Positions 2,789 through 34,000 of a stretch of DNA of 64,000 bases are shown here, one piece after another. Source of the stretch: a virus; IMG/VR virus record IMGVR_UViG_3300037316_000027, positions 32,001 to 96,000 of that record. One strand, 5' to 3'. A program made the position numbers and the translations under genes. The notes under the pieces are model-generated. The model was given only the letters and a program-made list of their open reading frames with translations, did no database searches and had not been told where the DNA came from. Numbering within the stretch: position 1 is the stretch's first letter; every line of letters starts with the position of its first letter.

Positions 2789-3021
2789 GTGACGATGTCG
2801 CTCCAATTGGTGTCAGGGCCGAAAGGCCCAAACCCTAGCGCCTCTGATGCCGCGTAGCGGCTGATCTCGGTAGCAATCGCACCAGTGACGTAGTCGATCG
2901 CCTGTTGTCGCGTCAGTCCGGAGGGCACATTGACTGTGATGCCCGTGCATAGACTGAAGTCGGTGCGTGGATCGACGATCACGCATCGGAAATTTTTCCT
3001 TACCATCACCGGGAGGGTCAT
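2785..3021 (-). CDS. Hypothetical protein (78 aa)
   Basis: ATGA overlaps at both ends within the tail operon. Confidence 0.6.
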   Translation of the reverse strand: MTLPVMVRKNFRCVIVDPRTDFSLCTGITVNVPSGLTRQQAIDYVTGAIATEISRYAASEALGFGPFGPDTNWSDIVT

Positions 3022-3401
3022 TTTGTTTTCACTCTAATGCTGCGCGGGTCGAGCGCGATGATCTCGCGCTTATCTGCCCGCATCAGCGCGTCGTGCCCCA
3101 TCGCCCGGTATTTATCGAGCTGTGCCTTTTCGTATCCAATCCATTCCATCGTATCGTCGTCCAAAATCTTTGGGTTGCGCGGCGCGAACTCCGCCTCAAG
3201 AACGCGGGCTGGCTCCCCGGTTACTTCGGACCGCGTCTTGGCGTAGTTGCGGGCGTCCCCGAGGTTGCTCGTAAAGAACGGGCTATGCGGCACTCCGCTT
3301 GCGCCGGCAGTGCCGTGAAAGACGCGGGTTCTGCCGACACTCTCGACGCCTTGCGAATGCAGGCCCTTCCCGTCGCTCCCGTGGCCCAGTGCGTCCTTCA
3401 T
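3018..3401 (-). CDS. ADP-ribosyltransferase-fold (ART-PolyVal-like) protein with N-terminal MKDALGHGS tag
   Basis: Likely start ATG 3401 (TGATG overlap with the upstream gene). Motifs VFHGT, FFTSNLGDARNYA, VLEAEF..RNP, GHDAL and EIIALDP match the ART-fold pattern seen in phage polyvalent proteins. Confidence 0.65.
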   Translation of the reverse strand: MKDALGHGSDGKGLHSQGVESVGRTRVFHGTAGASGVPHSPFFTSNLGDARNYAKTRSEVTGEPARVLEAEFAPRNPKILDDDTMEWIGYEKAQLDKYRAMGHDALMRADKREIIALDPRSIRVKTK

Positions 3402-3871
3402 CAGACTTCCTCCAGATCGAGCGTCCAGCCAACCACGCACTTCCACTCGTCGAAGTGTTGCTCGACTTTCTTGACCATCATAGTCAGCTCCGGGCGATAG
3501 AACGTGTAGGCTCCGAGGACGTAGGATGAGCCGGAGACTTCCGGCCTGTTATGAGGGCCATTGCCGCCGGACGTGAGGTAAGCGAGCGTGACCCCGCACT
3601 GCACGGTCACGATCATTCCGGGCCAGACACCATCAAGCGGCGGTGCGTCAGTGTCGTTGGGTGAGTTGATCGTCGAAGAGTATTTGCGAAATTGCGGGGC
3701 CGAGATATCGACTAGGGTGCCATTGATCGTGCGCTCCTGTTGAGTGGCCTCGCCGATCACTTCGAGTGTCTGGCTGAGACCACGGGCTTGATACAGCATG
3801 TCTCCAAACGACGAGATCGTCAGGAGCGTGTCGCTATTCGCGGGAAGAACGTTTTCAAATCCACCACTCAT
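3401..3871 (-). CDS. Distal tail-like virion protein
   Basis: 156 aa directly after the tape measure gene; beta-rich with RTINGTLVD motif and C-terminal WTLDLEEV. Confidence 0.6.
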   Translation of the reverse strand: MSGGFENVLPANSDTLLTISSFGDMLYQARGLSQTLEVIGEATQQERTINGTLVDISAPQFRKYSSTINSPNDTDAPPLDGVWPGMIVTVQCGVTLAYLTSGGNGPHNRPEVSGSSYVLGAYTFYRPELTMMVKKVEQHFDEWKCVVGWTLDLEEV

Positions 3872-6202
3872 TTACTTCATCCATGACGGGTTGTTGCCGG
3901 CGGCCGAGGCCTGTCGCGCAATCGCGAAGCTGGAGAGATCGTCAATCGTACTTTTCGGCCCGCGCAAACCATTGAACGATCGCCCGTCGATCGACAAGTT
4001 CAACGTACTCGTGGCCGGGACGCTACCGCTGCCCATGCGCACGGGCGACGGCACGAGGCCGCCGGACGCGAAGCCGGGCAGTTGCATGTTGTTCAAGGCA
4101 TGGAAGAGGCTAGCACCGTATGCTTGCACGGCCGCAGCCTTGACAACGAATTCCCCGCGCGAAAGCCGCGCCATGATGCTATCGCTTGTAGTCGTACCCG
4201 GGCCGTCAACTTGACCGCCGCCTGCCAGTGCCGTCGTGCCGCCGCTGAGATCGCCCGCAGTGCCGCCCTCTCCGGCGTTGCCGCCCCGCCCTACCGATGG
4301 GCCAGCGGGAGCCGCCGCACCGCCGTTGCCGCCAAGCCATTTAGGCAGCTTGCTGAGCCACCCCAGAAGCTCTTTAACTCGATCGGTGATGCCTTCGATG
4401 ATTTGACCGGCCGGGCTGGCCTTGAATTTCTCCCAGAGATCGACAACGTAGTTTTTGACTTTCGTCGTGATCTCACTGAGCCCGCCCATTGCCGTGATAA
4501 CCAAGACGATGGTAGCGGGGATAGCGACCCACACGCCCAAAAATAGCCCGACAATAACAGTCAGGGCGATCAAGAGCACTTGCATGCCTGTGCCGGGACC
4601 CAAGCTGAACGCCCGATCAATCGTGTTACCCAGTTGCTCGAAGAAGCCGACGACCAGTTTGACGCCGGTCCCGATCGCTTCAAGCCCGGTGACGAACGCA
4701 TGCAAAAGACCGCCGGTATTATCCAGAGACGATTGAAGGGTCTCGAAGAAAGAGACCAGAGCAGGGCTGGCCAGCGCCGCAAGATCACGCCGGGTCAGAT
4801 CGAGATCAATGTTGAGGTTCTCGAATGCTATCTTCAGATGCTCGGCAGCATCAGTCCCGGCTTTCTGGGTCGAGATATGCTTGCTCGCTGCCTCCGTCAG
4901 GTCCTTAAATTGGTCGCCCGTTCGCGACAAAGCCCGGGCCATCTCGGCCGCAGCCGCGCCGCCGGACTGAAAGCCACGGCTGATCAGCTCTTGAACAATC
5001 TCCAACCGCTGAGCTTCAGAGATCGTGTCCTTTGTCGAATTCTGGAAAACCTTCTGGAGTTCGGTGAAGGCTTGAATGCCCGTGGGTACTTTCACATTGT
5101 TGGCCGCCGCCGCCATAGCGATGACGCTCTTGGTGATGTTCCGCGTGGAAACTTCTCCAAGGTCGATCGACTTGGCTACATCAGCGTTCTTATCGATAAC
5201 GCCTTGCAAGGCAGTGGAGATTTTTGTGATGTCAGTGAGATCGCGCTGAGTGGCTTTCTCGCGCGCGCTATCCGCGCGATCGATAGCCTCATTAAGCGCA
5301 TTCTGGCGCTGAAGCCTCGCCGTCTCCATTTGAGCAATGTCCTTGGCCCGCGACAGTTCCGCATCGTCCGCCGCTTGCTTTTTCTGCGCTAGCTTGTCGG
5401 CCGCCTCAGCCTGATCCTTGATCCGCTTATTGATCGCATCAAGGTGCGCGGTCCGCGCGTTGTCCACCGCCTCCTGCGCTTGATTGAGCGCGAGAGACTG
5501 CTTCTCGGCGTCAGTGGGCGGGTTGCCTTGAACCGTATGGAGATGTTGCAGGGCCGCCTCAACGCTCGTAGCCGAACCGGCGACCGCTTCGTTATCATGT
5601 TGCATCAGGCTCGCCGCTTCGGCGGCAGCGAACTCAAGCGCTCGATAAGTCTCCCTTACGCGAAGGTTGGCGGCAGAGATTTTCTGAGCATCGCTCTCCG
5701 CGCCGAACGCAACAGCGTTCTGCGCCTCCTTGACGCGGATCGAGGCCGCAACGATTTGCTCCTGAGCCTCGCTCTGCTGTGTGGCGGCGGTGCGGATCGA
5801 GGCCGTGATCTGAGGCCACTCACGCGAGATCGTGATAGTAAGGCGCTGAGCGAAACGTTCGAAGTTACTGGCACTGATGCCGGCCGAAGCGAAGGCCGCT
5901 TCGATGCCAACGAGTTCTGCGGTGGTCGATCCAAAGGCTTCAGCCAAGAATGCGGTCTTCTGTGTCGCGTCGTCCGAAGCTTCGACGAAAGCGATCATAG
6001 CTCCGGTCACGGCAGCGATAGATGTTACGATAGCACTGGCGACGATGCCGATGCTCTCCATGCCGCTGGCACCGCTCTTCGAAGCCTCTTCCAGTTGCTT
6101 GAAGGCTTCCGCCCCGGTGCGACCGATCTCATTGAGCGCGGAGAGCATCTCTCCGTCGCCCTGAAGCAAAACTTTTTGGACTACGTCCTCAAGACCAGCC
6201 AT
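3872..6202 (-). CDS. Tail tape measure protein
   Basis: 776 aa, Ala/Gln-rich helical, with a hydrophobic segment and the C-terminal GGxVxGPGTxTSDSIxARLSxGEFVV motif common in tape measure proteins; position after the tail chaperone. Confidence 0.9.
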   Translation of the reverse strand: MAGLEDVVQKVLLQGDGEMLSALNEIGRTGAEAFKQLEEASKSGASGMESIGIVASAIVTSIAAVTGAMIAFVEASDDATQKTAFLAEAFGSTTAELVGIEAAFASAGISASNFERFAQRLTITISREWPQITASIRTAATQQSEAQEQIVAASIRVKEAQNAVAFGAESDAQKISAANLRVRETYRALEFAAAEAASLMQHDNEAVAGSATSVEAALQHLHTVQGNPPTDAEKQSLALNQAQEAVDNARTAHLDAINKRIKDQAEAADKLAQKKQAADDAELSRAKDIAQMETARLQRQNALNEAIDRADSAREKATQRDLTDITKISTALQGVIDKNADVAKSIDLGEVSTRNITKSVIAMAAAANNVKVPTGIQAFTELQKVFQNSTKDTISEAQRLEIVQELISRGFQSGGAAAAEMARALSRTGDQFKDLTEAASKHISTQKAGTDAAEHLKIAFENLNIDLDLTRRDLAALASPALVSFFETLQSSLDNTGGLLHAFVTGLEAIGTGVKLVVGFFEQLGNTIDRAFSLGPGTGMQVLLIALTVIVGLFLGVWVAIPATIVLVITAMGGLSEITTKVKNYVVDLWEKFKASPAGQIIEGITDRVKELLGWLSKLPKWLGGNGGAAAPAGPSVGRGGNAGEGGTAGDLSGGTTALAGGGQVDGPGTTTSDSIMARLSRGEFVVKAAAVQAYGASLFHALNNMQLPGFASGGLVPSPVRMGSGSVPATSTLNLSIDGRSFNGLRGPKSTIDDLSSFAIARQASAAGNNPSWMK

Positions 6203-6726
6203 TAGCTCGCCGCCTTAAACGCTGTGTCAAAGATGTCACGGAAGTTCGCCATGACGTTCAATTGGATTTCTCCAAGGTGGAATTTCTTGGGCACGTTCAC
6301 ACTGGCGATGCCGAAGTATTTGGGGGACTTGTCTCGGACCGAGAAGAGCAGCGGCGGGCCGCCCGCTTTGCGATTGACTGAGAACAGCGTGTCACCGTAG
6401 TTGCTGGCTCGAATTCCTTCGGCATCAGTGCCACTGATCGGAAGCCACAAGAGCGGGTTGCCGACGATGGTGCCGCCGCTCTCGAAGAGCGATGCGCCGG
6501 GCATATCGAGCGTCGTGGTGATGGTCTTGTCTTCGACCGTCACTTCCAGTCCCTCGGAACTGAATTGGCCTGCGCTCTCGATATCCGCCGCGCTCTGTTC
6601 CTTGATCATGCTGGCCGCCATATTCAGGGCGGTCGCGAATGCAGTCTCAAAGCGCTCTCCAAGCCCGGCCCAATTCTGCGCGAACTTGTCAGGAGCTACC
6701 GCGTCCGTGGTGATGCTAAACGTCAT
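6202..6726 (-). CDS. Neck/tail-completion protein (HK97 gp10-like)
   Basis: ATG 6726 overlaps the stop of the frameshifted chaperone frame. ASLFESGGTI..P.LWLP pattern. Confidence 0.55.
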   Translation of the reverse strand: MTFSITTDAVAPDKFAQNWAGLGERFETAFATALNMAASMIKEQSAADIESAGQFSSEGLEVTVEDKTITTTLDMPGASLFESGGTIVGNPLLWLPISGTDAEGIRASNYGDTLFSVNRKAGGPPLLFSVRDKSPKYFGIASVNVPKKFHLGEIQLNVMANFRDIFDTAFKAAS

Positions 6727-7013
6727 CCGCCTTCCTTTTCCCATTCTTCAAGTTGCCGCTTCACCGCCTTCTCATCCCCGCTCTGAGCGAGTAGCAGGAG
6801 CGAGAGGGTGACGTAGTTCTCGCGATGCAGACGCTTGGTCGCGAGAAACATGAAGGCCGACATCTGTCGGGGAGTGTAATCCCAGACTACGCTTGGGGAG
6901 TGTCCGGCAGCGATGAGGGCTTCGATGCTGGCGGCGATGTCATAGCCGTCACCTTTGAAGAGAGGGCGGAGTTGGCTGCGTCTGCCAGAGCCATGATCCG
7001 CTCCGCGAAAGGG
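6723..7013 (-). CDS. -1 frameshift extension of the tail chaperone (gpGT-like)
   Basis: The -1 frame is open from the slippery site to TGA at 6723 and encodes ...IEALIAAGHSPSVVWDYTPRQM...EEWEKEGG. Its stop overlaps the next ATG. Confidence 0.75.
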   Translation of the reverse strand, partial: PFRGADHGSGRRSQLRPLFKGDGYDIAASIEALIAAGHSPSVVWDYTPRQMSAFMFLATKRLHRENYVTLSLLLLAQSGDEKAVKRQLEEWEKEGG

Positions 7014-7366
7014 GCGAAGCCTTTTGTGAAGGTCAACCTCCCGACTGCTTCGAGAATATCGAACTGAATTTCGATCGGCAGCTCCGAGGCCGATTGCTCC
7101 GCGCTCTCGTCGCCGAGATCGCCCGTGGCTGCCGCGATGATCGCCGCGACGGCGTCGGGGGCAGCCGCGAGGAAGGTGCCCAAATTAAAAGTGGTCCCGC
7201 TTGTCATTCCACTGATATTGGGGAAACGGCGGAAGATTTCGAGGCCGGTCTTGGCTGAGATGCCGGAGACGCGGAGGAAGCTTTCACCGATCGGCACGTC
7301 TTCGTACATCGGTGCAAGATCGGTCAGATTGAGACCCGGCTTCTTGCCGGCCTTTTTCGAAGTCAT
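6887..7366 (-). CDS. Tail assembly chaperone (lambda gpG-like)
   Basis: Lies between the tail tube and tape measure genes; contains an in-frame slippery heptamer C CCT TTC at 7007-7013. Confidence 0.75.
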   Translation of the reverse strand: MTSKKAGKKPGLNLTDLAPMYEDVPIGESFLRVSGISAKTGLEIFRRFPNISGMTSGTTFNLGTFLAAAPDAVAAIIAAATGDLGDESAEQSASELPIEIQFDILEAVGRLTFTKGFAPFAERIMALADAANSALSSKVTAMTSPPASKPSSLPDTPQA

Positions 7367-7409
7367 AGGATATTCCTTATCAAGAGGGGGACATTCGATA
7401 GGGTAGAAG

Positions 7410-7526
7410 TTATCGGGGGCCGACGAAGAGAGCGAACATCAGAATGATCTCTACGATCACAACGACGGCGATCAGGGCATTGCCGGTGCGTCCATGATCG
7501 ACGAATTTTATCGGACGCTGGATCAT
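7410..7526 (-). CDS. 38-aa single-TM peptide (not in ORF track)
   Basis: MIQRPIKFVDHGRTGNALIAVVVIVEIILMFALFVGPR; ATGA coupling to the upstream small ORF. Confidence 0.5.
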   Translation of the reverse strand: MIQRPIKFVDHGRTGNALIAVVVIVEIILMFALFVGPR

Positions 7527-7690
7527 GGGGCGCGACGCTGGAGCTGCTTATCCGTAGCCCGGCCTAGTAAAATGATGACGACGAAGCCTGTAGCGAGGCC
7601 CATCGCCCAACCCGGACCGACGAACGACATCGCGGCCGTAGTCAGGGCCGCATAGCCGGTCCAAAAGTCGGGGATGTTCCGATCGGGCAT
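7523..7690 (-). CDS. 55-aa membrane peptide (not in ORF track)
   Basis: MPDRNIPDFWTGYAALTTAAMSFVGPGWAMGLATGFVVIILLGRATDKQLQRRAP; starts immediately after the stop at 7691. Confidence 0.5.
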   Translation of the reverse strand: MPDRNIPDFWTGYAALTTAAMSFVGPGWAMGLATGFVVIILLGRATDKQLQRRAP

Positions 7691-8065
7691 TTAGGCGTGC
7701 CGGTGCGTGTGCTGGTGCCGGGGATGATCGGCGGGACCGGTTTGGACGCCGTGTTTGGCGTGGCGCGTCGCGCCGGCCGAGACCGGGGCATCTTCCTGTT
7801 CGTGGATCGCGGCAATCGGCTCTTCACTGATAGCCGCCGCATCGGGGGCGTCGGCGGTCGGGGTTTCAGCGGTCGAGGCTGTTTCAGCGGCCGTTGAAAG
7901 GGCCGGGTCCGCTACAATGGGGTCCTGCGGGGCAGCGGAGGGGTCTGGAGCGGCTGCCGGGTCGGCCGCGACTTCGGCGGCAATTTCCGGGGCGGGCGCA
8001 TCCTGAGCGACTACAGCGGGGTCAGCGGGCTGTTCGGCGAGGGTATTGTCAACTTGATCTGTCAT
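7691..8065 (-). CDS. Acidic Ala/Pro-rich disordered protein with His-rich tail
   Basis: GGAG RBS upstream of ATG 8065; composition. Confidence 0.6.
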   Translation of the reverse strand: MTDQVDNTLAEQPADPAVVAQDAPAPEIAAEVAADPAAAPDPSAAPQDPIVADPALSTAAETASTAETPTADAPDAAAISEEPIAAIHEQEDAPVSAGATRHAKHGVQTGPADHPRHQHTHRHA

Positions 8066-8162
8066 GGGGGATACTCCGTGAGTGAAAATGGACACTTTGG
8101 GGGTGTTTCTGCATACGAGACTTCAGCCCGGTACTGGGCGGGAGCTGGGCAGGGACAGCCTG

Positions 8163-8194
8163 TGGCCTGATTTACTGAGCAGTAAATCAGGCCA
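8163..8194 (-). terminator. Long perfect hairpin after the tail tube gene (terminator or processing site)
   Basis: tggcctgatttactg / cagtaaatcaggcca inverted repeat just downstream of the stop; no clear U-tract. Confidence 0.45.
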
Positions 8195-8199
8195 TGGCC

Positions 8200-8769
8200 T
8201 TACAGAACGTTGGTCGGGCTATTGGGCAGCGAGACGGTCGCGGTGCCAAAGCCACCGGAAAGCTGATCGTACAGCACGTCACCTTCGAGATCGACCGTGC
8301 CCCACGTGTTGGCAATCAGCGAGATCGCCTTGTTGGGGCTCAGCTTCACGAGCGGGAAATTCACGGTCCAGATCGGGCCGATGTCGTTGGTGCCGACGAA
8401 TTTCACGGACCCGTAGATCACAGGCGTTCCGAGAATGTCGATAGTGTCCGGGGTCGGCGACGGGCCGCCGGTTGGAAGACCGAGCAGGGCGAAGCCCATG
8501 TTGCGCGCGGTCAACTCTTCGAGCTGCATCGTGAGCGAGCCGGAAATTTCGATGACGGCCGTGAAGTCCTTCACGCGCACGCCGGTCCGCGAGCTGTAGT
8601 GGTCAAGGTTCGTCACCTTGGCCATGAACTCGAACACGGGGGCGTTGCCGCAATCGACGAAGGCGCTCTCGCCGAGCAGCTTGATCGAGAGGATGCCCTT
8701 ACCGACGTAATAGTTGCCGATGTTGGGGGAGAGCAGCGAGCCCTCGATGAATTCGTTTCCAAGAGGCAT
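8200..8769 (-). CDS. Major tail tube protein
   Basis: NYYVGKG...FVDCGNAPVFEF...LDHYSSRTGVRVKD motif of siphophage tail tubes; strong RBS and its own promoter. Confidence 0.85.
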   Translation of the reverse strand: MPLGNEFIEGSLLSPNIGNYYVGKGILSIKLLGESAFVDCGNAPVFEFMAKVTNLDHYSSRTGVRVKDFTAVIEISGSLTMQLEELTARNMGFALLGLPTGGPSPTPDTIDILGTPVIYGSVKFVGTNDIGPIWTVNFPLVKLSPNKAISLIANTWGTVDLEGDVLYDQLSGGFGTATVSLPNSPTNVL

Positions 8770-20422: not shown

Positions 20423-20423
20423 A

Positions 20424-21281: not shown

Positions 21282-21319
21282 GGTAACTTCTCCTTGGTAG
21301 AACCTAGGTGGACATCCAC

Positions 21320-21814: not shown

Positions 21815-22115
21815 AGTTTTTCCTCTTGTGCAACAGTCCTCGGCCTAGGCGGAAGATGTGCTGTCTCGTGATCTCTGTCGCGCCATTGGAGCCGTTCAAT
21901 CGACGGCTTCCGATGACGCGGTGAGCGATATCGGTGTTATCCTCGCCGGCTGTCAGGCCGACGCTGAGCGCGGAGTGGATGCGATTGGCATCATCAGCCG
22001 CGATACTTCGAGCCCATGCAACGAGCGTGTGCCCATGAATTTTCAGTGTTCGCGGTGCCCGGCGATGCCGGTCCCACGCGATGCCGTCGTGCTCGTGCTC
22101 TTCGACATCAGTCAT
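21804..22115 (-). CDS. Truncated MuF-like head morphogenesis protein (~103 aa)
   Basis: GHTL..WA..IAADD..RI..AL..GLTAGE....IA.RVIGS..LNG.NG..EITR resembles the central part of MuF/SPP1 gp7 proteins; the C-terminal MuF core is absent. Confidence 0.55.
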   Translation of the reverse strand: MTDVEEHEHDGIAWDRHRRAPRTLKIHGHTLVAWARSIAADDANRIHSALSVGLTAGEDNTDIAHRVIGSRRLNGSNGATEITRQHIFRLGRGLLHKRKNYGR

Positions 22116-22977: not shown

Positions 22978-23395
22978 TGGGCAAGTTATCCCGTAGATGG
23001 CGGAACGCCGCCTTGATGTGGCGCTCCCGGTGTGCAGCGATCTTCTTCGTCAGCTCGTCGCGCGTGAGCATCGCGTCACTGACCTTGGTTCGATTGATCC
23101 CGGCCACATCCATCAGCTCGTTCTCGATCATGTCGCGGATTTGCGGTTCGCTCTGATCGAGGATGTTGATCGCCTCCATGAACGTCTTGATGATGTGCTT
23201 GACGTGCGGGTCGCTCGTCTTGTCGCTCACGTCCTGCGCAGCCTGCTTCAGCGCACCAAACGGCCCATCATTCGATTTGTCCACCAGCTCCGGAAACATA
23301 GCAGCGGCGTTCTTGGCGAAGTCGGCCGCATTGCCGCTCGGAATGTCTCCCGGACCATCCGGGTCCGTGATCTGCGGTGCGTAGGTATCTTTCAC
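22967..23395 (-). CDS. Hypothetical protein (142 aa)
   Basis: Overlapping-coupled ORF in the head operon. Confidence 0.6.
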   Translation of the reverse strand: MKDTYAPQITDPDGPGDIPSGNAADFAKNAAAMFPELVDKSNDGPFGALKQAAQDVSDKTSDPHVKHIIKTFMEAINILDQSEPQIRDMIENELMDVAGINRTKVSDAMLTRDELTKKIAAHRERHIKAAFRHLRDNLPSDI

Positions 23396-24672
23396 AGCTT
23401 CACACCTTTCTCGGTCGCGATCTTTCGCAGCTCGGTGCTGTAGTCAGTGTTGAGACGTTCCGTGTTCCGGCTTCCCAGTTTCGTGTAGAGCCGCTTTTCC
23501 GGATACCACCACGTTGCCTGCATATCGGCGATCGTCATATGATGTCCCGCATCCGCGAGCTTCTGTTGGGCCTGATCGAACACGTCTCGAATGTGCTGGC
23601 GCTGGCTTCCGTTGCCGGGCTGATCCTTGATGCCCCCGACCGCGAGTTCATACCGCTCGGCCGCGTATGTCAATTCCGATTTGGTCTTCGTTCCGGCGTC
23701 GAAGTCCGCGCGGTTGTCCTTAAAATCCTTGATATGGGCCAGACGAATGTCTGCGGCCAGCTTAACCATTCGGGGCTCAGTCGTCGGGATTTTCTGCCCG
23801 GCGGCCTTGAGCGCAGCAGTGAAGCGCGCCTTCGGCTTTTCTACGTCTACCGTCCCAGTCAGCGTGCCCGTGAGACGGCCCCAGCCGCGCATGAGCCACA
23901 TATCGGCGGTGAGAGGTTTGAAGTTTCCATTGAGGTTCTGATAAAATCCCTGTCCGATTTTCGGTCCCAAGATCGCGGAGCCATACATCTTGGCCCCCAT
24001 GTTTTCGCCGCTCACGGGCATGCCCATCTTGTCGAGATCGCCAACGGTGTATTCCTTGTCCAGAAACGCTTGCGCGCCCGCGACGCCCATGGTCCCAATC
24101 AGCTTGTTGAGCTTGTCGAAATTGCCGTTGATGCTGATCCCAGCCTTTCCGGCCTCCATGTCAGTCGGGAATTTCCCGGTCTTCTCAAAAATTCCATATG
24201 CCTTGTCGGCGAGGGCGGTGTTGATCTGCACGGTTTGGTTCTGGCTCGTGACCGCCAGCGCGGCGGTGAAAGCGAACTTCGCCGCCGGGTTGTCGGCCAT
24301 TTCCGGGTGCAGCTTTTCGGCGACGCCCATGGCATCCTTCATGCTGCTCGTGTACCAGTCCTCTGCGTTGCCGCCGCGCTTCAGCTCGTTCTCAATCTCT
24401 GAAGCGATGGCGCTCGAAACGATGTTATCCGCTTTCGCGTTCGGCCCCTCTTTCCCTTTCGGCTCTTCGATCACGCCGCCCGGGATGCCGAGCGCCTTGA
24501 GAGCGGCCTGCCCGCGCGCATTCAGCTCCTTGGCGATGTCCGGGTTGCTGCGCGAGCCCGGTTTCGCCATGGTAGGATCATTCAGGATCGAGTTGACGGT
24601 GAGCTTGTCGTAAGCTCCGCCCGCCGTCCACTCTCCGTGCGCATCGCGCGGCTCGTCAGGATTGAAGGTCAC
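23392..24672 (-). CDS. HhH-GPD DNA glycosylase-like protein with NPDEPRDAHGEW leader
   Basis: WY...ALAVTSQ...GPKIG..FY.NL.G...LTADMW..R...QATWW pattern of the HhH-GPD fold. Confidence 0.6.
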   Translation of the reverse strand: MTFNPDEPRDAHGEWTAGGAYDKLTVNSILNDPTMAKPGSRSNPDIAKELNARGQAALKALGIPGGVIEEPKGKEGPNAKADNIVSSAIASEIENELKRGGNAEDWYTSSMKDAMGVAEKLHPEMADNPAAKFAFTAALAVTSQNQTVQINTALADKAYGIFEKTGKFPTDMEAGKAGISINGNFDKLNKLIGTMGVAGAQAFLDKEYTVGDLDKMGMPVSGENMGAKMYGSAILGPKIGQGFYQNLNGNFKPLTADMWLMRGWGRLTGTLTGTVDVEKPKARFTAALKAAGQKIPTTEPRMVKLAADIRLAHIKDFKDNRADFDAGTKTKSELTYAAERYELAVGGIKDQPGNGSQRQHIRDVFDQAQQKLADAGHHMTIADMQATWWYPEKRLYTKLGSRNTERLNTDYSTELRKIATEKGVKL

Positions 24673-26378
24673 GCGCCGCCCTTCGTCTTGCCCGCTGACG
24701 CGCCCTTCTTGCCGACTTTACGCTTCAGAGGAACAGGTGACCCACGCGTGTAGCCCTTCGCACGTGCGGTCGGCACAATCGGCACGTTCTGATTTGGCGG
24801 TGTAGCGCCTGCGGGGGCGGCCGGTGGGGCGGTCGGGGCTGGTGGTGTAGTGCCGCCGTCGCTCGGTGGCGGACCCGCGACTGCGCTGAGATCAGTATCC
24901 AAGAAAGTATCATCGGTGACAGACTGCCCAAAGGGGCCGACCATGGTCCCGAGCATCGACGCCGCTTCTTCCTCGATCTGATTGTTCTCTTCTTCAAAGT
25001 CCATCTCCGTCATGTCGTTCATCTGCATCATGCGATGCATCGAACGGAGTGACAAGGGCAGTCCGAGCTGCTTGGCCTGCATGAACGCGAGCAGCGCGGC
25101 ACCAGCGACAGTCTGATCGGCGAAGTCCGTGGTCGGCTTGACCGATACTTCATCGGGGTCTTCCCCGACCCACTCCGCGCAATACTTAAGCGCGGTCTCC
25201 AGTCCCTTGCCGGCGCACTGGGCGACGGATGAAATCGTGGTCGTGCGAGCCGCGACGCGAATACGGAGGGCTTCGCCGCTCTCACCGCGCGCGTTGCCGA
25301 CATCCAAGAAGGCCACACCGAGCGAAGCGGCTTCGTCCTGATCGCTCTTGAGCGACTGACGCATCTCGCCAAGACCGGCGGCGGAGACGCCGATGTATTT
25401 CGCATCGCCATCGATACGCAGATCGATGACGCCCTTGTTGCCGACGCGGAGTTTATCCGGCGCGGCTTCATCGACGTTGCCACCGATGATGACGAGCGTG
25501 TTCTGTCCTTGCAGGTAAAGCGTTTGCCGGTAGTCGGCCTCGCCCCGGTAGATAGCCAGAGCGAGGTTCGACAGGCCAAGAAGTGGGGACACTTCCGGTT
25601 CGGGTACGAGATCGTTTGCGCCGATGAAGACGAACGGGATGTCGTCGAGTGCGCGACCGCCGATCGACGGGAAAATAAAATCTTCCATGATGGGCATGGA
25701 GCTGTCATTGACTTTCACGGCGACAGCGTAGGGCGATCCCTCCGGCGGGCGCTCCCAGCCGCTCTCAAGGCTCTCGGGACCGCCGCGCGTGAGCACGCGA
25801 TACTTGCGTTCGGTCTTCCACGTAAAGCCCTCGCGGCGAAAACCGCTCTCGTCCAGCACGACGAGATCGAGCATGTTGCGGCCCTCGTTAAGGCGTCCCG
25901 CGTCCCAGTTGATGATCCGCATCGGCTCGTAGAATGACAGGTACGGGGTCGCCTTGTCGATATCGACGCCCTGCGGTGCGTCCGCAAGCAGCCCGCAGCG
26001 CCCATACAGGAGTTGCGCGACGTTGATCCGGCGAAGCAACATCTGGAGCCCCTCGCCTTGGATTGTCGCCTTATCCATCATGGTCTGAAGACGCGGAGGC
26101 AGCGTGATCACGGCGGGCTTGTTATGCATTATTCCAACCATTGCCTTCACGGCATCCTTGACAACGTCGTGGAAGTAGGCGCGCATCAAGTACGCTTCGT
26201 AGTCGCGCCAGCCGGGAGAGCTTGGGGTCGTCATTCCATCCTGCACCATGCCCTCGGTCGCCGGGAGGTAGTCGAGACGCTTCGACTTGACGGCGCGCTC
26301 GCCTTGATAGGTGTCCGAGAGCTGGAGCCATTCGCCCAGTCTTTCTACGTACTCGGGATGCTTGTCTGGCAATGCCAT
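24669..26378 (-). CDS. Portal protein (DUF4055-like)
   Basis: HPEY...YLP...Y..YL.RA.F...IINW...IPFVFIG...ESGEALRIR; directly after terL. Confidence 0.9.
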   Translation of the reverse strand: MALPDKHPEYVERLGEWLQLSDTYQGERAVKSKRLDYLPATEGMVQDGMTTPSSPGWRDYEAYLMRAYFHDVVKDAVKAMVGIMHNKPAVITLPPRLQTMMDKATIQGEGLQMLLRRINVAQLLYGRCGLLADAPQGVDIDKATPYLSFYEPMRIINWDAGRLNEGRNMLDLVVLDESGFRREGFTWKTERKYRVLTRGGPESLESGWERPPEGSPYAVAVKVNDSSMPIMEDFIFPSIGGRALDDIPFVFIGANDLVPEPEVSPLLGLSNLALAIYRGEADYRQTLYLQGQNTLVIIGGNVDEAAPDKLRVGNKGVIDLRIDGDAKYIGVSAAGLGEMRQSLKSDQDEAASLGVAFLDVGNARGESGEALRIRVAARTTTISSVAQCAGKGLETALKYCAEWVGEDPDEVSVKPTTDFADQTVAGAALLAFMQAKQLGLPLSLRSMHRMMQMNDMTEMDFEEENNQIEEEAASMLGTMVGPFGQSVTDDTFLDTDLSAVAGPPPSDGGTTPPAPTAPPAAPAGATPPNQNVPIVPTARAKGYTRGSPVPLKRKVGKKGASAGKTKGGA

Positions 26379-26449
26379 GGTGATATCCTTCCGGGGGCTA
26401 GGTCCTCTAGCCTATTAACCATATCCTGTCAATCATCTTGACAGGATGA

Positions 26450-28072
26450 TTACGCGCCTGCTCGCCCGGACTTCATGCCCGGGGAGCTGTCAAAGCGCAG
26501 CATGTACCGCGTCTCGTCTCCAGCGTGGTCTTCGCTGTCATCGTCTACATCATCGATCTTGACTTCGTCGCGCGGCAGCACCGGCACGCATCGAAGCCAT
26601 TGCTGGCATTCCGTCGTGACGAACAGGCCGGGGATTTCCCGGAAGCCGTCCGGCGGCCGTTTGGCCGCCTTGAGCCGCTTGCGGATTTGCTCCCAGCCCT
26701 GCTCGCGCGAACCGGGGCCTTTGTCGGCCCTCTCCCAGAAAACGCCACGGTATTTCACGCCGTTGATCGTGACCGGCTTCTCGAAGTCGTCCGCGATGGA
26801 AACTGTCGATGAGGACTGATCGCCATCGAAAATCGAACTGTCCGCCGGTCCTCGGCTCACCCGGGTCCACGTACCTTGAGGATCACGTAGGCCCCATTTG
26901 ATTTCGCGTTCAATGATGCCCTTCGCGATATCGGCGACGAGCAGCCGCGAGCCTTCGTTCGGTTGTCCGCGCCAGCCGTACCATTCGTGGATACGGAAGA
27001 GATCGCCGCGCACTGTCGCCCGCATTCTACCGGGGACGATCTGCCCCTGTGAGTTCTTCGTGTCGCGCAATTTCAAATCGGTCCCGTCGCTCCGTGCGTA
27101 CCAGCCGACCGAGAACGGCTTCGACGAGCCATGGTCATAGGCCCGATAAATCTTCCAGCCCGGCGGCACGTCGAACGGCTCGATCACGACCGCGTCCCGG
27201 TACTCGTACCAGATGTCGTCGAACATGCCGCCGGCAACGATGTCCCACGAGCCCTCCATCCACGCCGCGAGTTCGGACTTGTTGCGGGCTGACGCTTTAA
27301 TTTTGTTCTTGTACTCCGGGTCCGAGTGCAACAGCAGCACGTTCTCGTCGAGATAGCCGTGAATGGCGCGGCGCGGCGGCTCCTTGTTACCTGCTTCGTC
27401 TACGGTGCCCGTAATGAGTGGGCCGACTGTCGGCTTGCGCCCGTTGATCGTCTCGCCGTTGATCGGCAATCGCCAGCGGGCCTTGACCCAGTTATGGCCG
27501 ACGCCGTAGGGATTGGTCGTTGCGCGCACCTTGCGCGGCATTCCCCTGATCGTCGAACGCGAGCACGAGAACATGCTCATGTAGCAATCCGGGCTCGGCC
27601 AGTTCGTCAACTCTTCCCAACCAATCCACGGATAGGCGTGACCGTGGTAGTTATCGTAATCGCTGCGCACGTTGAAGTGGGCGAAGTACAGGCGCTCGCC
27701 TGTCGGCCACTCCCACATCGTCTTGACTTCATTGTAGACCGCGTTAGGCCAGATACGCTTGATCCACTTCTTGGACTTCTCAATGATGTCGCGCAACTGC
27801 GGATGCGATTGTCGAAACAAGACGCCTTTCCATTCTGCACCATAGCCTTTGCCGACATCCTGACAAAAGTCCATGATCAGCGCGTCGGTCTTGCCGGGGC
27901 CGCGTGTTCCTTCGTAGAGAACTTCCATTGTCGGATCGGCGAGGAAAAACTCCTGTGACCCCGGTTGCGGGCACCATATCGCAGCTTTTAACACCCCTCT
28001 ATCGTCACGAAAATACGGGACGTAAGCCCCATCCTTGTCCTGCACGAATTTTTCGACACTGGGCCACTGCAT
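26450..28072 (-). CDS. terL: Terminase large subunit
   Basis: Walker A GTRGPGKT, Walker B WIGWEEL, ATTNP, nuclease DHG...EDHAGDETRY. Confidence 0.95.
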   Translation of the reverse strand: MQWPSVEKFVQDKDGAYVPYFRDDRGVLKAAIWCPQPGSQEFFLADPTMEVLYEGTRGPGKTDALIMDFCQDVGKGYGAEWKGVLFRQSHPQLRDIIEKSKKWIKRIWPNAVYNEVKTMWEWPTGERLYFAHFNVRSDYDNYHGHAYPWIGWEELTNWPSPDCYMSMFSCSRSTIRGMPRKVRATTNPYGVGHNWVKARWRLPINGETINGRKPTVGPLITGTVDEAGNKEPPRRAIHGYLDENVLLLHSDPEYKNKIKASARNKSELAAWMEGSWDIVAGGMFDDIWYEYRDAVVIEPFDVPPGWKIYRAYDHGSSKPFSVGWYARSDGTDLKLRDTKNSQGQIVPGRMRATVRGDLFRIHEWYGWRGQPNEGSRLLVADIAKGIIEREIKWGLRDPQGTWTRVSRGPADSSIFDGDQSSSTVSIADDFEKPVTINGVKYRGVFWERADKGPGSREQGWEQIRKRLKAAKRPPDGFREIPGLFVTTECQQWLRCVPVLPRDEVKIDDVDDDSEDHAGDETRYMLRFDSSPGMKSGRAGA

Positions 28073-28073
28073 T

Positions 28074-28946
28074 TTAAGCGGCGTCCCCAGTGTCGTCCTC
28101 AGTACCCTCAACGCTGTCATCGAACGTGACGGCTGGCCGACCTTCGCGACGATAGGCACTTTCAAGTTCGTTGAGCGCTTCCGACGTGGCCGCGCGCATC
28201 CCGACGACAAGCACGCCGCCCGTGACGTTCATATCAACGATCGCCCGCTTGCCATATTCTTTCGGCTTGCGGTTTTCGAGATACCACCTGAGCATGTCGG
28301 GGTCTTGTTTGAAAATCGTCTCGGGGACTGGAGCACCGTTCTCGTCGCGAAGCCATAGCCTCGGGTTTCTGTCGTCAATGGGGTCGCCGAGCAGAACGAA
28401 CAGATCATACTTGTCTGGGTCGATTTTATATTGGACGCGCCCCCTGAAAGATTGTACCTCGAAGAAGCCCGTAGCCAGTGCCCACGAAGCCGTCTCCGCT
28501 TTCCCGAGGCCTTCATCCACCGCTGCGTCCCATGCGAGATGAAACCGCTGGGTGTTGTCAGAGTTCTCATTCTCTTCATCGTCGGGAAGAGCTACGTCGA
28601 AACCGTCCCCGGGAGCGCCCTCCTTGGATTTCTGTAGCCAGTATTTGAGTTGGGAGAGGCTGATGCCCGCGCGCTGCGCCGCGTCCGACGCATGGGGAAT
28701 TTCAGCGACGTTCTTGAGCAGACGATTGAGGCGTTCGGGAGTGTTCTTTCGCGGGGCGCGAGGGCCACGGACATCTAGGGGCGAAGGCCCAGACCCGTTT
28801 ACCGGATAGCTGCGGGATCGCTCTAGGACGCCCCGGCTTGCTGCGCCCATGGGACGAGACTTCGGCGGGGCTTTATCGATTAGCACTTCGGGGCCGACCG
28901 GAGCCGGGCCGAGCAAATCGTCGAGACTGGTTTCTTCTCCGCTCAT
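28074..28946 (-). CDS. terS: Terminase small subunit
   Basis: HTH (AAQRAGISLSQLKYW), DPDMLRWYLENRKPKEYG; immediately upstream of terL. Confidence 0.75.
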   Translation of the reverse strand: MSGEETSLDDLLGPAPVGPEVLIDKAPPKSRPMGAASRGVLERSRSYPVNGSGPSPLDVRGPRAPRKNTPERLNRLLKNVAEIPHASDAAQRAGISLSQLKYWLQKSKEGAPGDGFDVALPDDEENENSDNTQRFHLAWDAAVDEGLGKAETASWALATGFFEVQSFRGRVQYKIDPDKYDLFVLLGDPIDDRNPRLWLRDENGAPVPETIFKQDPDMLRWYLENRKPKEYGKRAIVDMNVTGGVLVVGMRAATSEALNELESAYRREGRPAVTFDDSVEGTEDDTGDAA

Positions 28947-29140
28947 GCGGGTATCCCCTTCAGGCATTGCATCGGCCCAGCCGATGGGAGGCGCGCATGC
29001 GCACTCGCGTATATTCGTCTTTGATACGCAAACGCGGATATAGCTCAGCTATACCCGATGTTTTGTATCATTCGCAGCCCTTACAGATGTCCGCCGGTCC
29101 CGGCGGGACTGGCGGAAGCGGGGCTACCTGAGACTGTGGC

Positions 29141-29416
29141 CTAGCACTGATATCCGGGCGTGACCCCACACCCTGTTGTGTGCTGTGCGGACCCAAAAAA
29201 GTAGTGAGGGAGGCCACCCCCGACGCCCATCAGTCCAGCGAGCCAGAGCATGACCGCGATCAGGCACAAGAGCGCTACGATGATCTTCCCGACCTTCACC
29301 ATGTCCGCCGAGGGCGGATATCCGACGAGGGTGAGTAGCCAGAGCATTGTGAAAGCAACGAACACAACGATCGCACAGTAGAGCACGACGTTGGCCAGTC
29401 CGATAAGAATTTCCAT
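29141..29416 (-). CDS. Small two-TM membrane protein
   Basis: Two long hydrophobic helices; GAGG RBS. Confidence 0.6.
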   Translation of the reverse strand: MEILIGLANVVLYCAIVVFVAFTMLWLLTLVGYPPSADMVKVGKIIVALLCLIAVMLWLAGLMGVGGGLPHYFFGSAQHTTGCGVTPGYQC

Positions 29417-29572
29417 GGTAGCCTCACTTGCCTAGTTCGGCGCGGATGATACTCGCGCGAGCTTGACTAAGCTTGTCATCGGGAAATTGTTCCAGATGCT
29501 TTTGGATACCTTCAAGTTGACGTTCTAGGCGCTTCTGTCTACTCGAAGGCGCGCACGTGTTGACTTTGCCCA

Positions 29573-29935
29573 TCAGATTTTGCCGTCTTCAACGCCGAAG
29601 ATGACGCCTTTTTCAGATGTTGGGAAAGCGCCGTAGCCGACCATGCATCCGTTTCTGAAGGTGACGAAGACCGACAAGATGCCGCCGTCCTTATCGAAAA
29701 TTTCGGCGAGATCGACATCCGCATTCGGCGAGGGACTTCTCGCCATCATCCCCTTGAGCACGGCACCTTCGACCTTCCGATCGAATTTGAGCGGGGCTGG
29801 GGCGGTCTTGAGAACCACTTCAGGGGTGAGACAGACTTCTGCCGGGGCCTTGTGGGCGATGGATGTGTTCTTAGCGAGGACAGGGGGAGCGAGGGCGAGA
29901 AGAGCAGCGAGGGACAGCGATGCGACCTTCAGCAT
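29573..29935 (-). CDS. Exported protein with signal peptide
   Basis: MLKVASLSLAALLALAPPVLA signal; AGGAG RBS. Confidence 0.6.
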   Translation of the reverse strand: MLKVASLSLAALLALAPPVLAKNTSIAHKAPAEVCLTPEVVLKTAPAPLKFDRKVEGAVLKGMMARSPSPNADVDLAEIFDKDGGILSVFVTFRNGCMVGYGAFPTSEKGVIFGVEDGKI

Positions 29936-29950
29936 TTGTTGAAACTCCTG

Positions 29951-30238
29951 TTACCGCTGAAATGAGCGATTGGTGATGGGACCACGGGCGCGCCGGATGT
30001 TGGCGGCCGGAATTTTCCCGCCCTCGTCATTGCGCGAGCGCATGGTCGGAGTGGTCGGCACTTTCTGCTCGGCGGAGACGGGGCGCGTTTGCGGGTTGAC
30101 GCCGACTGGCACAGTAGCCTGCGGCAGGAAGCCGGAAGTCGTGTGCTTGCCGGGAGTGTCGCTCGACGGACCAGCGAAGCCGTTCTGGCCGTAGCCATTG
30201 TCCGACTTCATCTTGCTTCCAACTACGTCAATCGCCAT
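29951..30238 (-). CDS. Small basic Gly/Pro-rich protein
   Basis: ORF downstream of late promoter copy 4. Confidence 0.5.
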   Translation of the reverse strand: MAIDVVGSKMKSDNGYGQNGFAGPSSDTPGKHTTSGFLPQATVPVGVNPQTRPVSAEQKVPTTPTMRSRNDEGGKIPAANIRRARGPITNRSFQR

Positions 30239-30344
30239 GATCGTCTCTTTCGTCAATGTCGCTACCGTGCAGCCCGTCTTCCGCTTCCAGCCTTTCGGCT
30301 TCGGCGTCAGCTTCGAGCCACTCGCTCAGAAAGTCGTCCACAGA

Positions 30345-30719
30345 TTAGCGGCCGAGGCGCGCGGCCTCTGCGAGGACGGCCTTGCCGAGATTGCCGTTGA
30401 CCGACTGGCCGTTGGCGTCCTTCATGCCCCACGAGGACTTGAGTTCGCCCGGCTGCCGACGCAAAACCTTGTCGGTCGGCGACGGATCGAGCGGGTTCGG
30501 GCTGGAGGCGTCGGGCGCGTGATCGAAGCCCGGGCTCGTCGGCGACGCGCCGCGAAGCTTCGAGGCATCGGTCTGATCCTTCATGCCTTCCTTGACAGGG
30601 AATTTGGTCTGGGTGCGCTTCGCAGCGCCAGAGCGCGGATCGACGGGGCTGTTGGAAATGCGATCCTGCATCGCGGGGTCGATGGTCTTCGCTACAACGC
30701 CGCTACCTTTGACTGCCAT
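30345..30719 (-). CDS. Small disordered protein
   Basis: AAGGA RBS; first gene after late promoter copy 4. Confidence 0.6.
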   Translation of the reverse strand: MAVKGSGVVAKTIDPAMQDRISNSPVDPRSGAAKRTQTKFPVKEGMKDQTDASKLRGASPTSPGFDHAPDASSPNPLDPSPTDKVLRRQPGELKSSWGMKDANGQSVNGNLGKAVLAEAARLGR

Positions 30720-30753
30720 GTGCGTGATCCTTACGAGTTGGAATTTCTCCGCA

Positions 30754-30793
30754 AGCATACGCGTAGCGCAGCTTCGGAACAACTGGGAATTAG
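30754..30793 (-). promoter_or_regulatory. Late promoter copy 4 (CTAATTCCCAG-TTGTTC-N17-TATGCT)
   Basis: Matches the five-copy consensus. Confidence 0.75.
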
Positions 30794-30837
30794 GACGGGG
30801 GCTTGACAGTCCTCAGTGAGAGCAGTATCAAAACCAT

Positions 30838-31503
30838 ATGCCCCATTTTCTCTATCGCATCGTTGCTCCAGATGGTCGTGCCTACATAGGTGTTACCAAG
30901 AGCCCGAAAAAGCGTTTCAGTGCCCACTGCCATCGCTCTTCGTCGGCGGTCAACGCAGCGATCAGAGAGTTCGGCCGCGCCGCGATGAAATTCGAATTAC
31001 TCACCTGCGGACCTAACGAGTATATCTACGAGCTTGAAGCGGCAGCCATTACTGCTTTTAATACTCGGCAGCCGAACGGTTTCAATCTGGCGATTGGCGG
31101 TCCTGCCGGGCGGTCCAATCGCAACCCGCTTCCGTCTACGCGTACCCGACTGTCAGAGGCGGCTAAGAAAAATATCAAAGCTCAAGTGGCTATGACGCTT
31201 GCTGCGACGGCAGCGCGACTTGGGAAACCCCTCCCAGCCACAACACGCGCAAAAATATCTGCGGCAAACAGCGGCACAAAACCCGCCGCACATACGATTG
31301 CGGCGTCGGTAGCCGCGCGAAAAGGCAAGCCTGCATGGAATAAAGGAATATCACCGTCTGCCGCGACCCGCACGAAACAGTCGATAGCGAGCAAGAATAA
31401 CCCGAGGGTGGTAGCGGCACAAATTTTTGCGACGGCGAAAGCGGCAGAGAAGCGACGAATTATGTCGAGCCGAGCGGGCCGCCCGGACCTGAGCCGCCGG
31501 TAG
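30838..31503 (+). CDS. GIY-YIG homing endonuclease with NUMOD3-like repeats
   Basis: FLYRI...AYIGVT...RF..H...E...I..FNT...GFNL; TRAKISAAN.G and AWNKG repeats; opposite strand to its neighbours. Confidence 0.85.
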   Translation: MPHFLYRIVAPDGRAYIGVTKSPKKRFSAHCHRSSSAVNAAIREFGRAAMKFELLTCGPNEYIYELEAAAITAFNTRQPNGFNLAIGGPAGRSNRNPLPSTRTRLSEAAKKNIKAQVAMTLAATAARLGKPLPATTRAKISAANSGTKPAAHTIAASVAARKGKPAWNKGISPSAATRTKQSIASKNNPRVVAAQIFATAKAAEKRRIMSSRAGRPDLSRR

Positions 31504-31690
31504 TTGGGGGACCATTTGCTCCGGGCGCAGCTCCGCTCCCCGGCGAGCCCGGAAGAACTTGAGCTGGTTCCGGAAAGCTCGGCGGATCACTCTTGGGATG
31601 GCCATTTGCCAACACATCAGCGGCTTCATCATCGGTCACGCTCCGGTTGGGTTTGTCCCACTGGATATTGCTTTTAGATGCTCGCAGCAT
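31460..31690 (-). CDS. Small protein with PKS-box motif
   Basis: AADVLANGHPKSDPP resembles the motif shared by genes at 33.2-35.2 kb. Confidence 0.55.
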   Translation of the reverse strand: MLRASKSNIQWDKPNRSVTDDEAADVLANGHPKSDPPSFPEPAQVLPGSPGSGAAPGANGPPTTGGSGPGGPLGST

Positions 31691-31691
31691 G

Positions 31692-32150
31692 TTACTTCCC
31701 CTTGAGTTTCATATAGACGACATCGGGTCCGCCCGCTGTCCAATTCTTTTCGCGATGATCTTCAACGAACCCGTGCTTCGCGTAAATCTGCGGAAGCCCG
31801 ACATCGAACGCGTCGAGGGTTTTCCCGCCGGCCGCTTTCGCCGCTTCGATAGCCGCGCCGCCTGCGCCCTTTTCGCCTGAATTGTTGAACACGCTCTGCA
31901 CGTCACCTTCGGGAGAGACGGCGGAGCCGACCTTGCCGTCGTTGCGAAGGATCAGCGTGTGATGGTCGAGTTCGCTCGGGTCGGCGTGAGGCGTGAACAT
32001 GCCGACGCGCGAAGACTGATTGCGCGCAGCCAAGAACTCAGCAGGGGCGGCGCGGCGAAAGCCATTGGGCAGGCCGATGTTGTTGATGCCCGTCGCGTGC
32101 GCGGGGCCGCCGCGCGGGTTCGATCCGTGTCCGCCTGCATCCTTGGGCAT
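31692..32150 (-). CDS. GNAT-fold acetyltransferase-like protein with KDAGGHGS tag
   Basis: SVFNNSGEKGAGGAAIEAAK..GG.TLDAFD..LP..YAKHGF matches GNAT motifs A/B. Confidence 0.7.
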   Translation of the reverse strand: MPKDAGGHGSNPRGGPAHATGINNIGLPNGFRRAAPAEFLAARNQSSRVGMFTPHADPSELDHHTLILRNDGKVGSAVSPEGDVQSVFNNSGEKGAGGAAIEAAKAAGGKTLDAFDVGLPQIYAKHGFVEDHREKNWTAGGPDVVYMKLKGK

Positions 32151-33996: not shown

Positions 33997-34000
33997 CTGT

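Follow-up and report, generated by a model that had tools for sequence, protein, structure and literature searches.

Proteins that phages inject together with their DNA act before phage gene expression and include counter-defence enzymes, and they are hard to spot from sequence unless they are fused to MuF or lie inside giant polyvalent proteins. According to a passage of PMC3012670, the diverse internal defence proteins of T-even phages have only a capsid-targeting sequence (CTS) in common. MuF itself is hypothesised, in a passage of PMC11699363, to be a capsid-targeting domain. Among the named domain classes of polyvalent proteins, the main text of PMC5512222 includes ART and GNAT, and it notes solo GNATs among late genes. 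Here we analysed a 64,000-nucleotide stretch of DNA from a soil phage (the window), which spans bases 32001-96000 of the single 126,820-bp IMG/VR virus record IMGVR_UViG_3300037316_000027, rated 100% complete by CheckV. At least ten separate genes in this genome open with either of two short conserved peptides, here called tag 1 and tag 2. We favour, at a probability of roughly 0.55, the reading that both tags are modular address or handling peptides for virion-borne proteins that enter the host with the DNA.

Two leader peptides and the genes they head

Tag 1 has the form M(x)KDAxGHGS and heads eight small genes. Two of them carry recognisable cargo: the ART-like gene at 3018-3401 (minus strand, 127 residues) starts MKDALGHGS, and the GNAT-like gene at 31692-32150 (minus strand, 152 residues) starts MPKDAGGHGS. 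In 3018-3401 the start is the ATG of the tag itself, and the longer GTG frame reaching to 3446 is not needed. The other six genes, encoding 89-167 residues, stand in tandem on the minus strand (35659-36063, 35257-35643, 34928-35248, 34342-34758, 34001-34270 and 33493-33996), each starting M(A)KDAxGHGS in a six-frame scan; the first member of this array has no Pfam match. The tag-1 DNA pattern matches 8 times in the window, compared with a mean of 0.00 in 100 shuffles, and all eight copies of the 126.8-kb genome fall in the window. Across these copies the third codon positions vary and the serine is encoded by AGC, AGT or TCG, so selection acts on the peptide rather than on the DNA. Many tag-1 proteins carry a second motif, AHxxG(V/I)xx(I/V)G, after a Gly-rich spacer, which in 3018-3401 reads LHSQGVESVG.

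Tag 2, with the general form (F/Y)(N/D)PxExRDxxG(E/R/K)W followed by Gly-rich residues, reads NPDE(P/A)RDxxGEW in the window and heads two larger post-portal genes on the minus strand. The first, at 23392-24672 (426 residues), follows the portal gene directly and starts VTFNPDEPRDAHGEW; the second, at 22108-22977 (289 residues), starts VTYNPDEARDEKGEW. When the two proteins were compared by BLASTP, residues 1-20 alone aligned, with 13/20 identical (E 3e-5). An earlier note on this DNA had singled out these two genes together with 3018-3401 and 31692-32150 as four separate genes, each with its own N-terminal tag, placed after the portal gene, in the tail region after the tape measure and before the terminase. 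Both the open reading frames (ORFs) and their placement hold as described, with the tags falling into two types. The four are presumably late genes, as the note called them, judging from their position and orientation.

We then followed tag 1 into other genomes. The pattern marks 81 IMG/VR stretches, many of them with arrays and two with 10 matches each. Tagged ORFs in these stretches number 282, and they encode 219 unique proteins with lengths of 24-205 residues (median 129.5). In those loci and the window combined, 289/289 copies lie at an ORF start; M precedes the motif in 282 of them and a GTG/TTG start in the other 7. The 211 cargos behind the tag fall into 54 clusters. A scan of 109 tagged proteins matched ART-PolyVal in three, GNAT in two, Arr-ms in one, ParB_N in one and helix-turn-helix (HTH) families in a few, with no match for most; unrelated folds therefore carry one tag. 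A PHROGs scan of the tag-1 proteins adds little. Among the 219 tag-1 proteins, an hmmsearch with profiles A5 and A6 found no domain like that of 22108-22977 or 23392-24672, so the six tag-1 matches to phrog_3170 touch another part of that profile.

The tag-1 loci belong to a single phage clade, with large terminase (TerL) sequences 80-86% and capsid proteins 86-93% identical (eight best of 39 loci) and portals 62-89% identical across distinct loci. In bacterial genomes (596 Gb) the tag-1 pattern occurs in 27 stretches, mostly singly, with two copies each on two contigs of Hyphomicrobiales metagenome-assembled genomes; set against a rough hand estimate of about 35 matches by chance, this looks like chance level. 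Tag 2 is N-terminal in 17/18 matches within the related loci, where the proteins that carry it have 269-804 residues, apart from one ORF of 53 residues and two ORFs cut by the locus end. The gene starting at most 450 nucleotides after the portal gene carries tag 2 in 11, tag 1 in 1 and neither in 7 of 19 distinct loci; two further loci were too short and were left out of this count. Cargo that resembles ART-PolyVal is found behind tag 1 and, on weaker evidence (locus L007, E 0.004), behind tag 2.

Further sequence features accompany the array. An untagged paralogue of 94 residues (33212-33496, minus strand) shares the internal SGPKSDPVPVHD motif of the array genes, and a third motif, SG(x)PKSxxVPVH(D)SM, is present in five proteins of the array region (33212-35248), the untagged one among them. 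The Pro-rich C-terminal tail of the portal protein (24669-24900) ends in NVP(I/V)xP...RGSPVPLKRKVGKKGASAGK, an ending strongly conserved in most of 18 aligned portals, and loosely resembles this third motif and the PVPVHD motif found inside the array proteins. At 30345-30425 (minus strand), a short frame starts MKDANGQSV and runs about 26 codons to a stop; it looks like a decayed tag-1 start.

Cargo domains and their polyvalent relatives

None of the four cargo proteins has a Pfam match at E<=1 or an NCBIfam match at E<=0.1, and PHROGs returned only two families of unknown function; the domain labels used here therefore rest on remote evidence. For 23392-24672 and 22108-22977, Foldseek searches of the PDB with structural models gave nothing at E<=0.001, and no credible relative emerged when the PDB was searched with profiles A5 and A6.

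Evidence for the fold of 23392-24672 came from an exhaustive VIA search with its AF2 model (pLDDT 92.3). The first 22 rows all belong to the HhH-GPD superfamily or its fold relatives (Z 9.8-6.3), and unrelated rows reach at most 5.5; these Z values lie below the caution line for helical proteins. The top row is the 8-oxoG glycosylase (OGG) Tm1821 (Z 9.8, root-mean-square deviation 4.2, 196/209 aligned), and further rows include NTHL1 (8.8), ROS1 (8.1), EndoIII, MagIII, MutY, OGG1, the queuine-salvage protein DUF2419 and the base-modifying PUGT of PaMx11 (6.7). Across 40 sequences G236, K238, G240 and D257 are invariant, an order that would fit the Gly-rich hairpin of HhH proteins followed by the catalytic Asp. 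The VIA rows thus support an HhH-GPD fold for the modelled protein, which could act as a glycosylase or by base transfer as in PUGT. The main text of PMC5512222 does not use the word 'glycosylase', although its supplementary files may cover the two post-portal domains.

In 22108-22977, H203, D204 and H208 are invariant across 48 aligned sequences, E220 is nearly so and H227 is conserved, giving the motif HDxxxH ... EE..W..H on two consecutive helices. Metallopeptidase domains, including an HEXXXH form, are predicted in a passage of PMC5512222 to process polyvalent proteins, and the motif makes a zincin-like peptidase of this kind possible. The AF2 model (pLDDT 91.7) has a best VIA Z of 2.6, with minigluzincins and YbeY as the closest folds (Z 2.4-2.6) and Asp in place of the Glu of HEXXH. 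At such a Z value the zincin assignment stays an idea.

The profile of ART-PolyVal (PF18760) does not match 3018-3401 in the Pfam search, nor does tblastn find a match in deposited phages. Three other tag-1 proteins do match PF18760, the best at 8.7e-14. In the Atlas, 3018-3401 scores 0.93 by features to ART-PolyVal clusters (187 shared features), and residues 24-127 align structurally at TM 0.79-0.81 with clusters in which 92-100% of members have PF18760. Its structural neighbours there include some of 864 residues with LPD22 and of 462 residues with MuF_C, and a 518-residue Phage_Mu_F cluster lacking PF18760 matches at TM 0.73. An hhalign comparison with four ART-PolyVal sequences was weak (probability 43%, E 2.4e-4). 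On this profile and model evidence, the cargo of 3018-3401 resembles ART-PolyVal.

The fourth cargo, 31692-32150, matches phrog_2563 at 6e-23 and has homologues in 194 phage records (171 Streptomyces, 21 Pseudomonas), which are small genes named acetyltransferase or GNAT by their depositors. Its Atlas score is 0.97 to viral clusters of 123-141 residues with the automatic name 'putative acetyltransferase', and the sole PDB profile match, to the acetyltransferase 1y9w, is weak (E 0.025). We place it in a small viral family of putative, GNAT-like acetyltransferases.

We next asked where relatives of these domains occur. The family of 23392-24672, which lacks a Pfam model, has 1824 representatives (E<=0.001), mostly buried in proteins of 1000-4168 residues. 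Among the best 150 of the 1824, 92 exceed 1000 residues (60 of them exceed 2000), 42 have 501-1000 and 16 have 500 or fewer, and the domain is internal in the long ones. Five long proteins of this family (687-3072 residues) were scanned; one contains LPD22, one contains InPase and one has no match, and weak ART-PolyVal and DUF7178 matches fell below the cut-offs. The closest stand-alone relative starts KHPRDDHGKW.

The best deposited matches to 22108-22977 share 40-55% identity over 83-91% of the query and lie inside larger proteins: a 2772-residue 'large polyvalent protein' of Planktothrix phage Pag-Yong1, a 2986-residue protein of an Octadecabacter virus, a 3209-residue protein of isolate ctQRb9 and an 847-residue protein encoded after a portal gene. 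The giants with such a segment contain ART-PolyVal, LPD22 and LPD38 by Pfam, and giants related to the two post-portal proteins are encoded among the virion genes of podoviruses. The 3209-residue protein carries, in order, ART-PolyVal (701-833), a segment like 23392-24672 (~915-1263) and one like 22108-22977 (~1623-1882); because these lie on a single chain, three of the four cargo types are fused elsewhere. Free-standing homologues of 22108-22977 number 487 in a search limited to 158-506 residues. Of the 120 listed, 84 have a strict tag 2 at the start, and most of the other 36 have a looser form (EARDYHGRW, KHPRDDKGQW).

These results partly support the interpretation in the earlier note, which took the four cargos for domains of giant polyvalent proteins split into separate tagged genes. 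Its domain labels fared unevenly: the HhH-GPD fold is borne out by the 22 VIA rows, ART-PolyVal by remote similarity and the HDxxGH motif by the sequence itself, and the GNAT label comes from depositor and automatic names and the match at E 0.025. Polyvalent kinship stands for 23392-24672, 22108-22977 and 3018-3401 and fails for the GNAT-like family, whose relatives are short proteins encoded on their own. Likewise, the expectation of top matches inside proteins of more than 1000 residues is borne out for both post-portal genes and not for the GNAT-like one; free-standing homologues are tagged for 22108-22977 and untagged for the GNAT-like family, which speaks against the claim for that domain. 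As for tagged genes as an alternative to fusion, the largest ORF of the whole 126.8-kb genome has 869 residues, as the claim would have it. Both motifs, however, also occur inside multi-module proteins of other phages (below), so tagging is not simply an alternative to fusion.

A proposed address for virion-borne cargo and its rivals

In other phages, cargo families of this sort are delivered by MuF fusion or as giant virion proteins. A free-standing copy must enter the particle by a different route, and the leader alone is common to the genes here, which argues for the leader as an address. In the mechanism that we propose, the peptide would dock its cargo non-covalently to a head-assembly component during procapsid assembly, with the portal protein (24669-26378), the small MuF-like protein (21804-22115) or the scaffolding protein (20424-21281) as candidate receptor. 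Docking would thereby take over the role that other phages give to covalent MuF fusion or to the joining of domains into one giant polyvalent protein, and the tag may be trimmed afterwards. The cargos delivered in this way would be predicted host- or DNA-modifying enzymes, namely an ART-PolyVal-like ADP-ribosyltransferase, a GNAT-like acetyltransferase, an HhH-GPD-fold DNA-base enzyme and an HDxxxH putative metal enzyme, along with several small tag-1 proteins of unknown function. A complex prediction from alignments of the portal, of the scaffold, of the MuF-like core and of residues 1-40 of 3018-3401 scored 0.00, which points in neither direction.

A broader proposal is that KDAxGHGS and (D/N)PxExRDxxGxW are undescribed short linear 'virion cargo' motifs in wide use among tailed phages, that a conserved head-assembly component recognises them, and that they became free-standing N-terminal addresses in this clade. 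We offer it tentatively, at somewhat less than even odds. The exact tag-1 and tag-2 strings, and any account of such tags, were not found in the literature searched.

Several observations weigh against these proposals. All 81 tag-1 loci fall in one clade, so the strict N-terminal rule is a feature of a lineage and not many independent cases. The nearest deposited phages are distant, with portal identities of only 45-47% to annotated portals by tblastn. One cluster holds 109/211 tag-1 cargos; its members are paralogous, are joined by further short motifs and include all six genes of the window's array. In Streptomyces and Pseudomonas phages, homologues of the GNAT-like cargo stand alone and lack the tag, and this family also occurs in early regions of Pseudomonas podoviruses. 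A role of the motifs as linkers within the giant polyvalent proteins that contain these cargo domains was tried and rejected, as four of five giants carry neither motif; the fifth, L088, has one RDxxGxW, and the single GHGS of L086 lies inside its HDxxGH motif.

The motifs are also found away from protein starts. We sought internal copies with a pattern that bars a start codon directly before the Lys. In the loci compared, 32/313 tag-1 motif copies lack a preceding M, of which seven follow GTG/TTG and several are chance matches in short frames. The true internal set comes from phages outside the clade and always reads (K)AKDA(L/G)GHGS after a short helix. In L117 the motif lies at residues 38 and 419 of a 518-residue protein, next to a 1600-residue ART-PolyVal protein, and at 148 of a 221-residue protein of the same locus. 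In L125 and L139 it lies at 121 and 197 of a 358-residue protein that also has the tag-2-like KDVHGPW at 29, with no neighbour identified. In L123 it lies at 232 of a 491-residue protein, just after DUF2213 (72-195), near a Phage_portal_3 portal and a 1201-residue Phage_Mu_F protein; in L119 and L121 it lies at 17 of a 118-residue protein whose gene adjoins that of a Portal_Mu portal. Tag 2 occurs between domains in P0164 (26, 306), P0166 (38, 847) and P0167 (482). These copies, too, count against a purely terminal address and would suit a processing or junction element as much as an address. They also mean that the motifs extend beyond the clade, keep company with head-morphogenesis genes in phages of several portal families and are not always terminal.

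The internal copies favour the main rival, in which the motifs are recognition or cleavage junctions of a maturation peptidase, or boundaries of self-processing modules, and the part upstream of the junction has been lost in the clade. The copies in L117, L125 and L123 sit at module boundaries, a 16-residue leader precedes the motif in L119, and tag 2 separates domains in the three proteins just named. The window also offers a candidate for the peptidase: the invariant HDxxxH helix of 22108-22977, followed by an EE helix, recalls the HEXXXH metallopeptidases predicted to process polyvalent proteins. That candidate, however, has neither fold support (best Z 2.6) nor a Pfam match, and the complete genome yielded no S78 or ClpP prohead protease and only a sub-threshold S77 match (11.8 bits). 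Moreover, a junction with nothing upstream to remove need not stay invariant at 289/289 starts. On balance we consider processing junctions unlikely as the whole explanation. The capsid-targeting leader of phage T4 is both an address and a propeptide that the prohead protease removes, and for this reason an address and a processing site are not mutually exclusive.

A different destination is a further alternative: the tags could direct proteins to the tail lumen, to a host factor or to a phage modifying enzyme such as the neighbouring glycosyltransferases, or could set protein lifetime by timed degradation. One tag-1 gene, 3018-3401, does lie within the tail module, a glycosyltransferase gene adjoins the capsid gene in the virion region, and the His, Ser and Lys of the tag could be modification sites. 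We nonetheless regard such destinations as quite improbable, given that in four phage lineages the neighbours are genes for portal, MuF or scaffold proteins and not tail genes, and that the cargos belong to families known from head-borne polyvalent proteins and MuF fusions. Least probable, and in our view very much so, is that nothing is targeted, with the shared N-terminus reflecting common descent of a fast-evolving paralogous family or a need of translation initiation. The large cluster of 109 cargos with its further shared motifs, and the tandem arrangement of the genes, are what descent would leave behind. It would not account for the unrelated folds under one tag (ART-PolyVal, GNAT, ParB_N, Arr-ms, HTH), for serine codons as different as AGC and TCG, which mark selection on the peptide, or for the internal motif copies in other phages. 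The untagged GNAT-like homologues, which count against the address proposal as noted, here point the other way, because they imply that the tag was added to that cargo.

If the tags are indeed addresses, a small gene that gains nine to sixteen codons becomes an injected effector. This would be a plug-and-play alternative to fusion and would explain the fast turnover of at least 54 cargo types, with fusion and tagging as two solutions to one loading problem. The motifs would then allow injected phage effectors to be listed from metagenomes by sequence, here at least 10 genes and, in relatives, 219 unique tagged proteins, and would supply a minimal tag with which foreign proteins could be loaded into siphovirus capsids. 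The family of 1824 representatives around 23392-24672, with its predicted HhH-GPD fold, would point to DNA-base chemistry as an injected function.

Virion module and comparison with described systems

From position 1 to about 37,000 of the window, the minus-strand genes make up the virion module of a siphovirus. A megablast search of 20000-36500 against deposited phages returned only short terminase matches of 72-78% identity. In transcription order, the tag-1 gene 31692-32150 lies upstream of the terminase genes, and the large terminase gene (26450-28210) precedes that of the portal. After the first tag-2 gene comes a gene for 142 residues (22967-23395) with no Pfam match. The second tag-2 gene is followed by the MuF-like core of about 103 residues (21804-22115), which is untagged and unfused to cargo, matches phrog_241 'head morphogenesis' at 4.5e-10, lacks a Pfam match and is kept in 13 related loci. 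An endonuclease VII/HNH-like gene (21320-21814; phrog_2633, 2.1e-14) lies between this core and the scaffolding protein gene (20424-21281; phrog_206, 7.6e-40). The block at 14005-20099 encodes a 655-residue collagen-like protein, a 509-residue fibre-like protein, two unassigned proteins and a glycosyltransferase (phrog_3408, 5e-127). The major capsid protein gene (12677-13828) is followed by those of the head-tail adaptor and the major tail protein. The tape measure (3872-6202) and one further gene (3401-3871) precede the tag-1 gene 3018-3401, which is followed by a gene for an 867-residue protein.

Some features of this region stand apart from the tags. By tblastn and ORF reading, homologues of 22967-23395 and 21804-22115 form a single continuous MuF-like ORF in L051 (~8109-8630) and L019 (~8229-8684), in which the counterpart of 22967-23395 makes up the N-terminal half. 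The window and at least seven other loci have the tag-2 gene 22108-22977 between the two MuF halves. The block at 14005-20099, between the scaffold and major capsid genes, is an unusual insertion within the head module. Amid the minus-strand pre-terminase genes, a plus-strand ORF (30838-31503) is, by eye, a candidate GIY-YIG homing endonuclease. Outside the window, the two ends of the record (105-116 and 126728-126739) encode near-identical peptide stretches, which may reflect terminal redundancy or a duplicated gene. Intein-splicing-domain matches below the curated cut-off occur in L117 at 439-5238 (minus strand), in the 1600-residue protein with ART-PolyVal and a 2'-5' RNA ligase-like part, and in L123 at 4216-7818 (plus strand), in the 1201-residue Phage_Mu_F protein.

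How does this arrangement compare with described ways of loading proteins into a capsid? With encapsulin cargo-loading peptides, diverse enzymes enter an HK97-fold shell by virtue of a short terminal peptide alone. Those peptides, however, are usually C-terminal, bind the shell protein of a non-viral compartment and have no sequence likeness to the tags. Effectors and toxins fused to MuF, such as Bxa and Apk2, occupy the same post-portal slot and are the same kind of cargo, ADP-ribosyltransferases included, whereas here the MuF-like core is a bare ORF and the unfused cargos carry a peptide of 13-16 residues instead. With the polyvalent proteins of PMC5512222 the locus has domain families in common, as ART-PolyVal and both post-portal domains occur in proteins of 2772-3209 residues with LPD22 or LPD38. 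Polyvalent proteins, however, combine two to fifteen effector domains per polypeptide, and each gene here encodes one cargo domain in 127-426 residues.

The closest parallel is with the internal proteins IPI, IPII and IPIII and with Alt of phage T4, in which the CTS is likewise a short, conserved leader at the N-terminus of small proteins that are otherwise unrelated and change fast, and of an ADP-ribosyltransferase. In T4 a prohead protease removes the leader, whereas no recognised one was found in this complete genome, and packaging is predicted here from the genes. By analogy, the system would work most like the T4 capsid-targeting leaders, being neither a polyvalent protein nor a MuF fusion. 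What is new relative to leaders of the T4 type is the peptides themselves, KDAxGHGS and RDxxGxW, the setting in a siphovirus that has both a scaffold and a MuF-like protein, and the presence of two tag classes sorted by cargo size.

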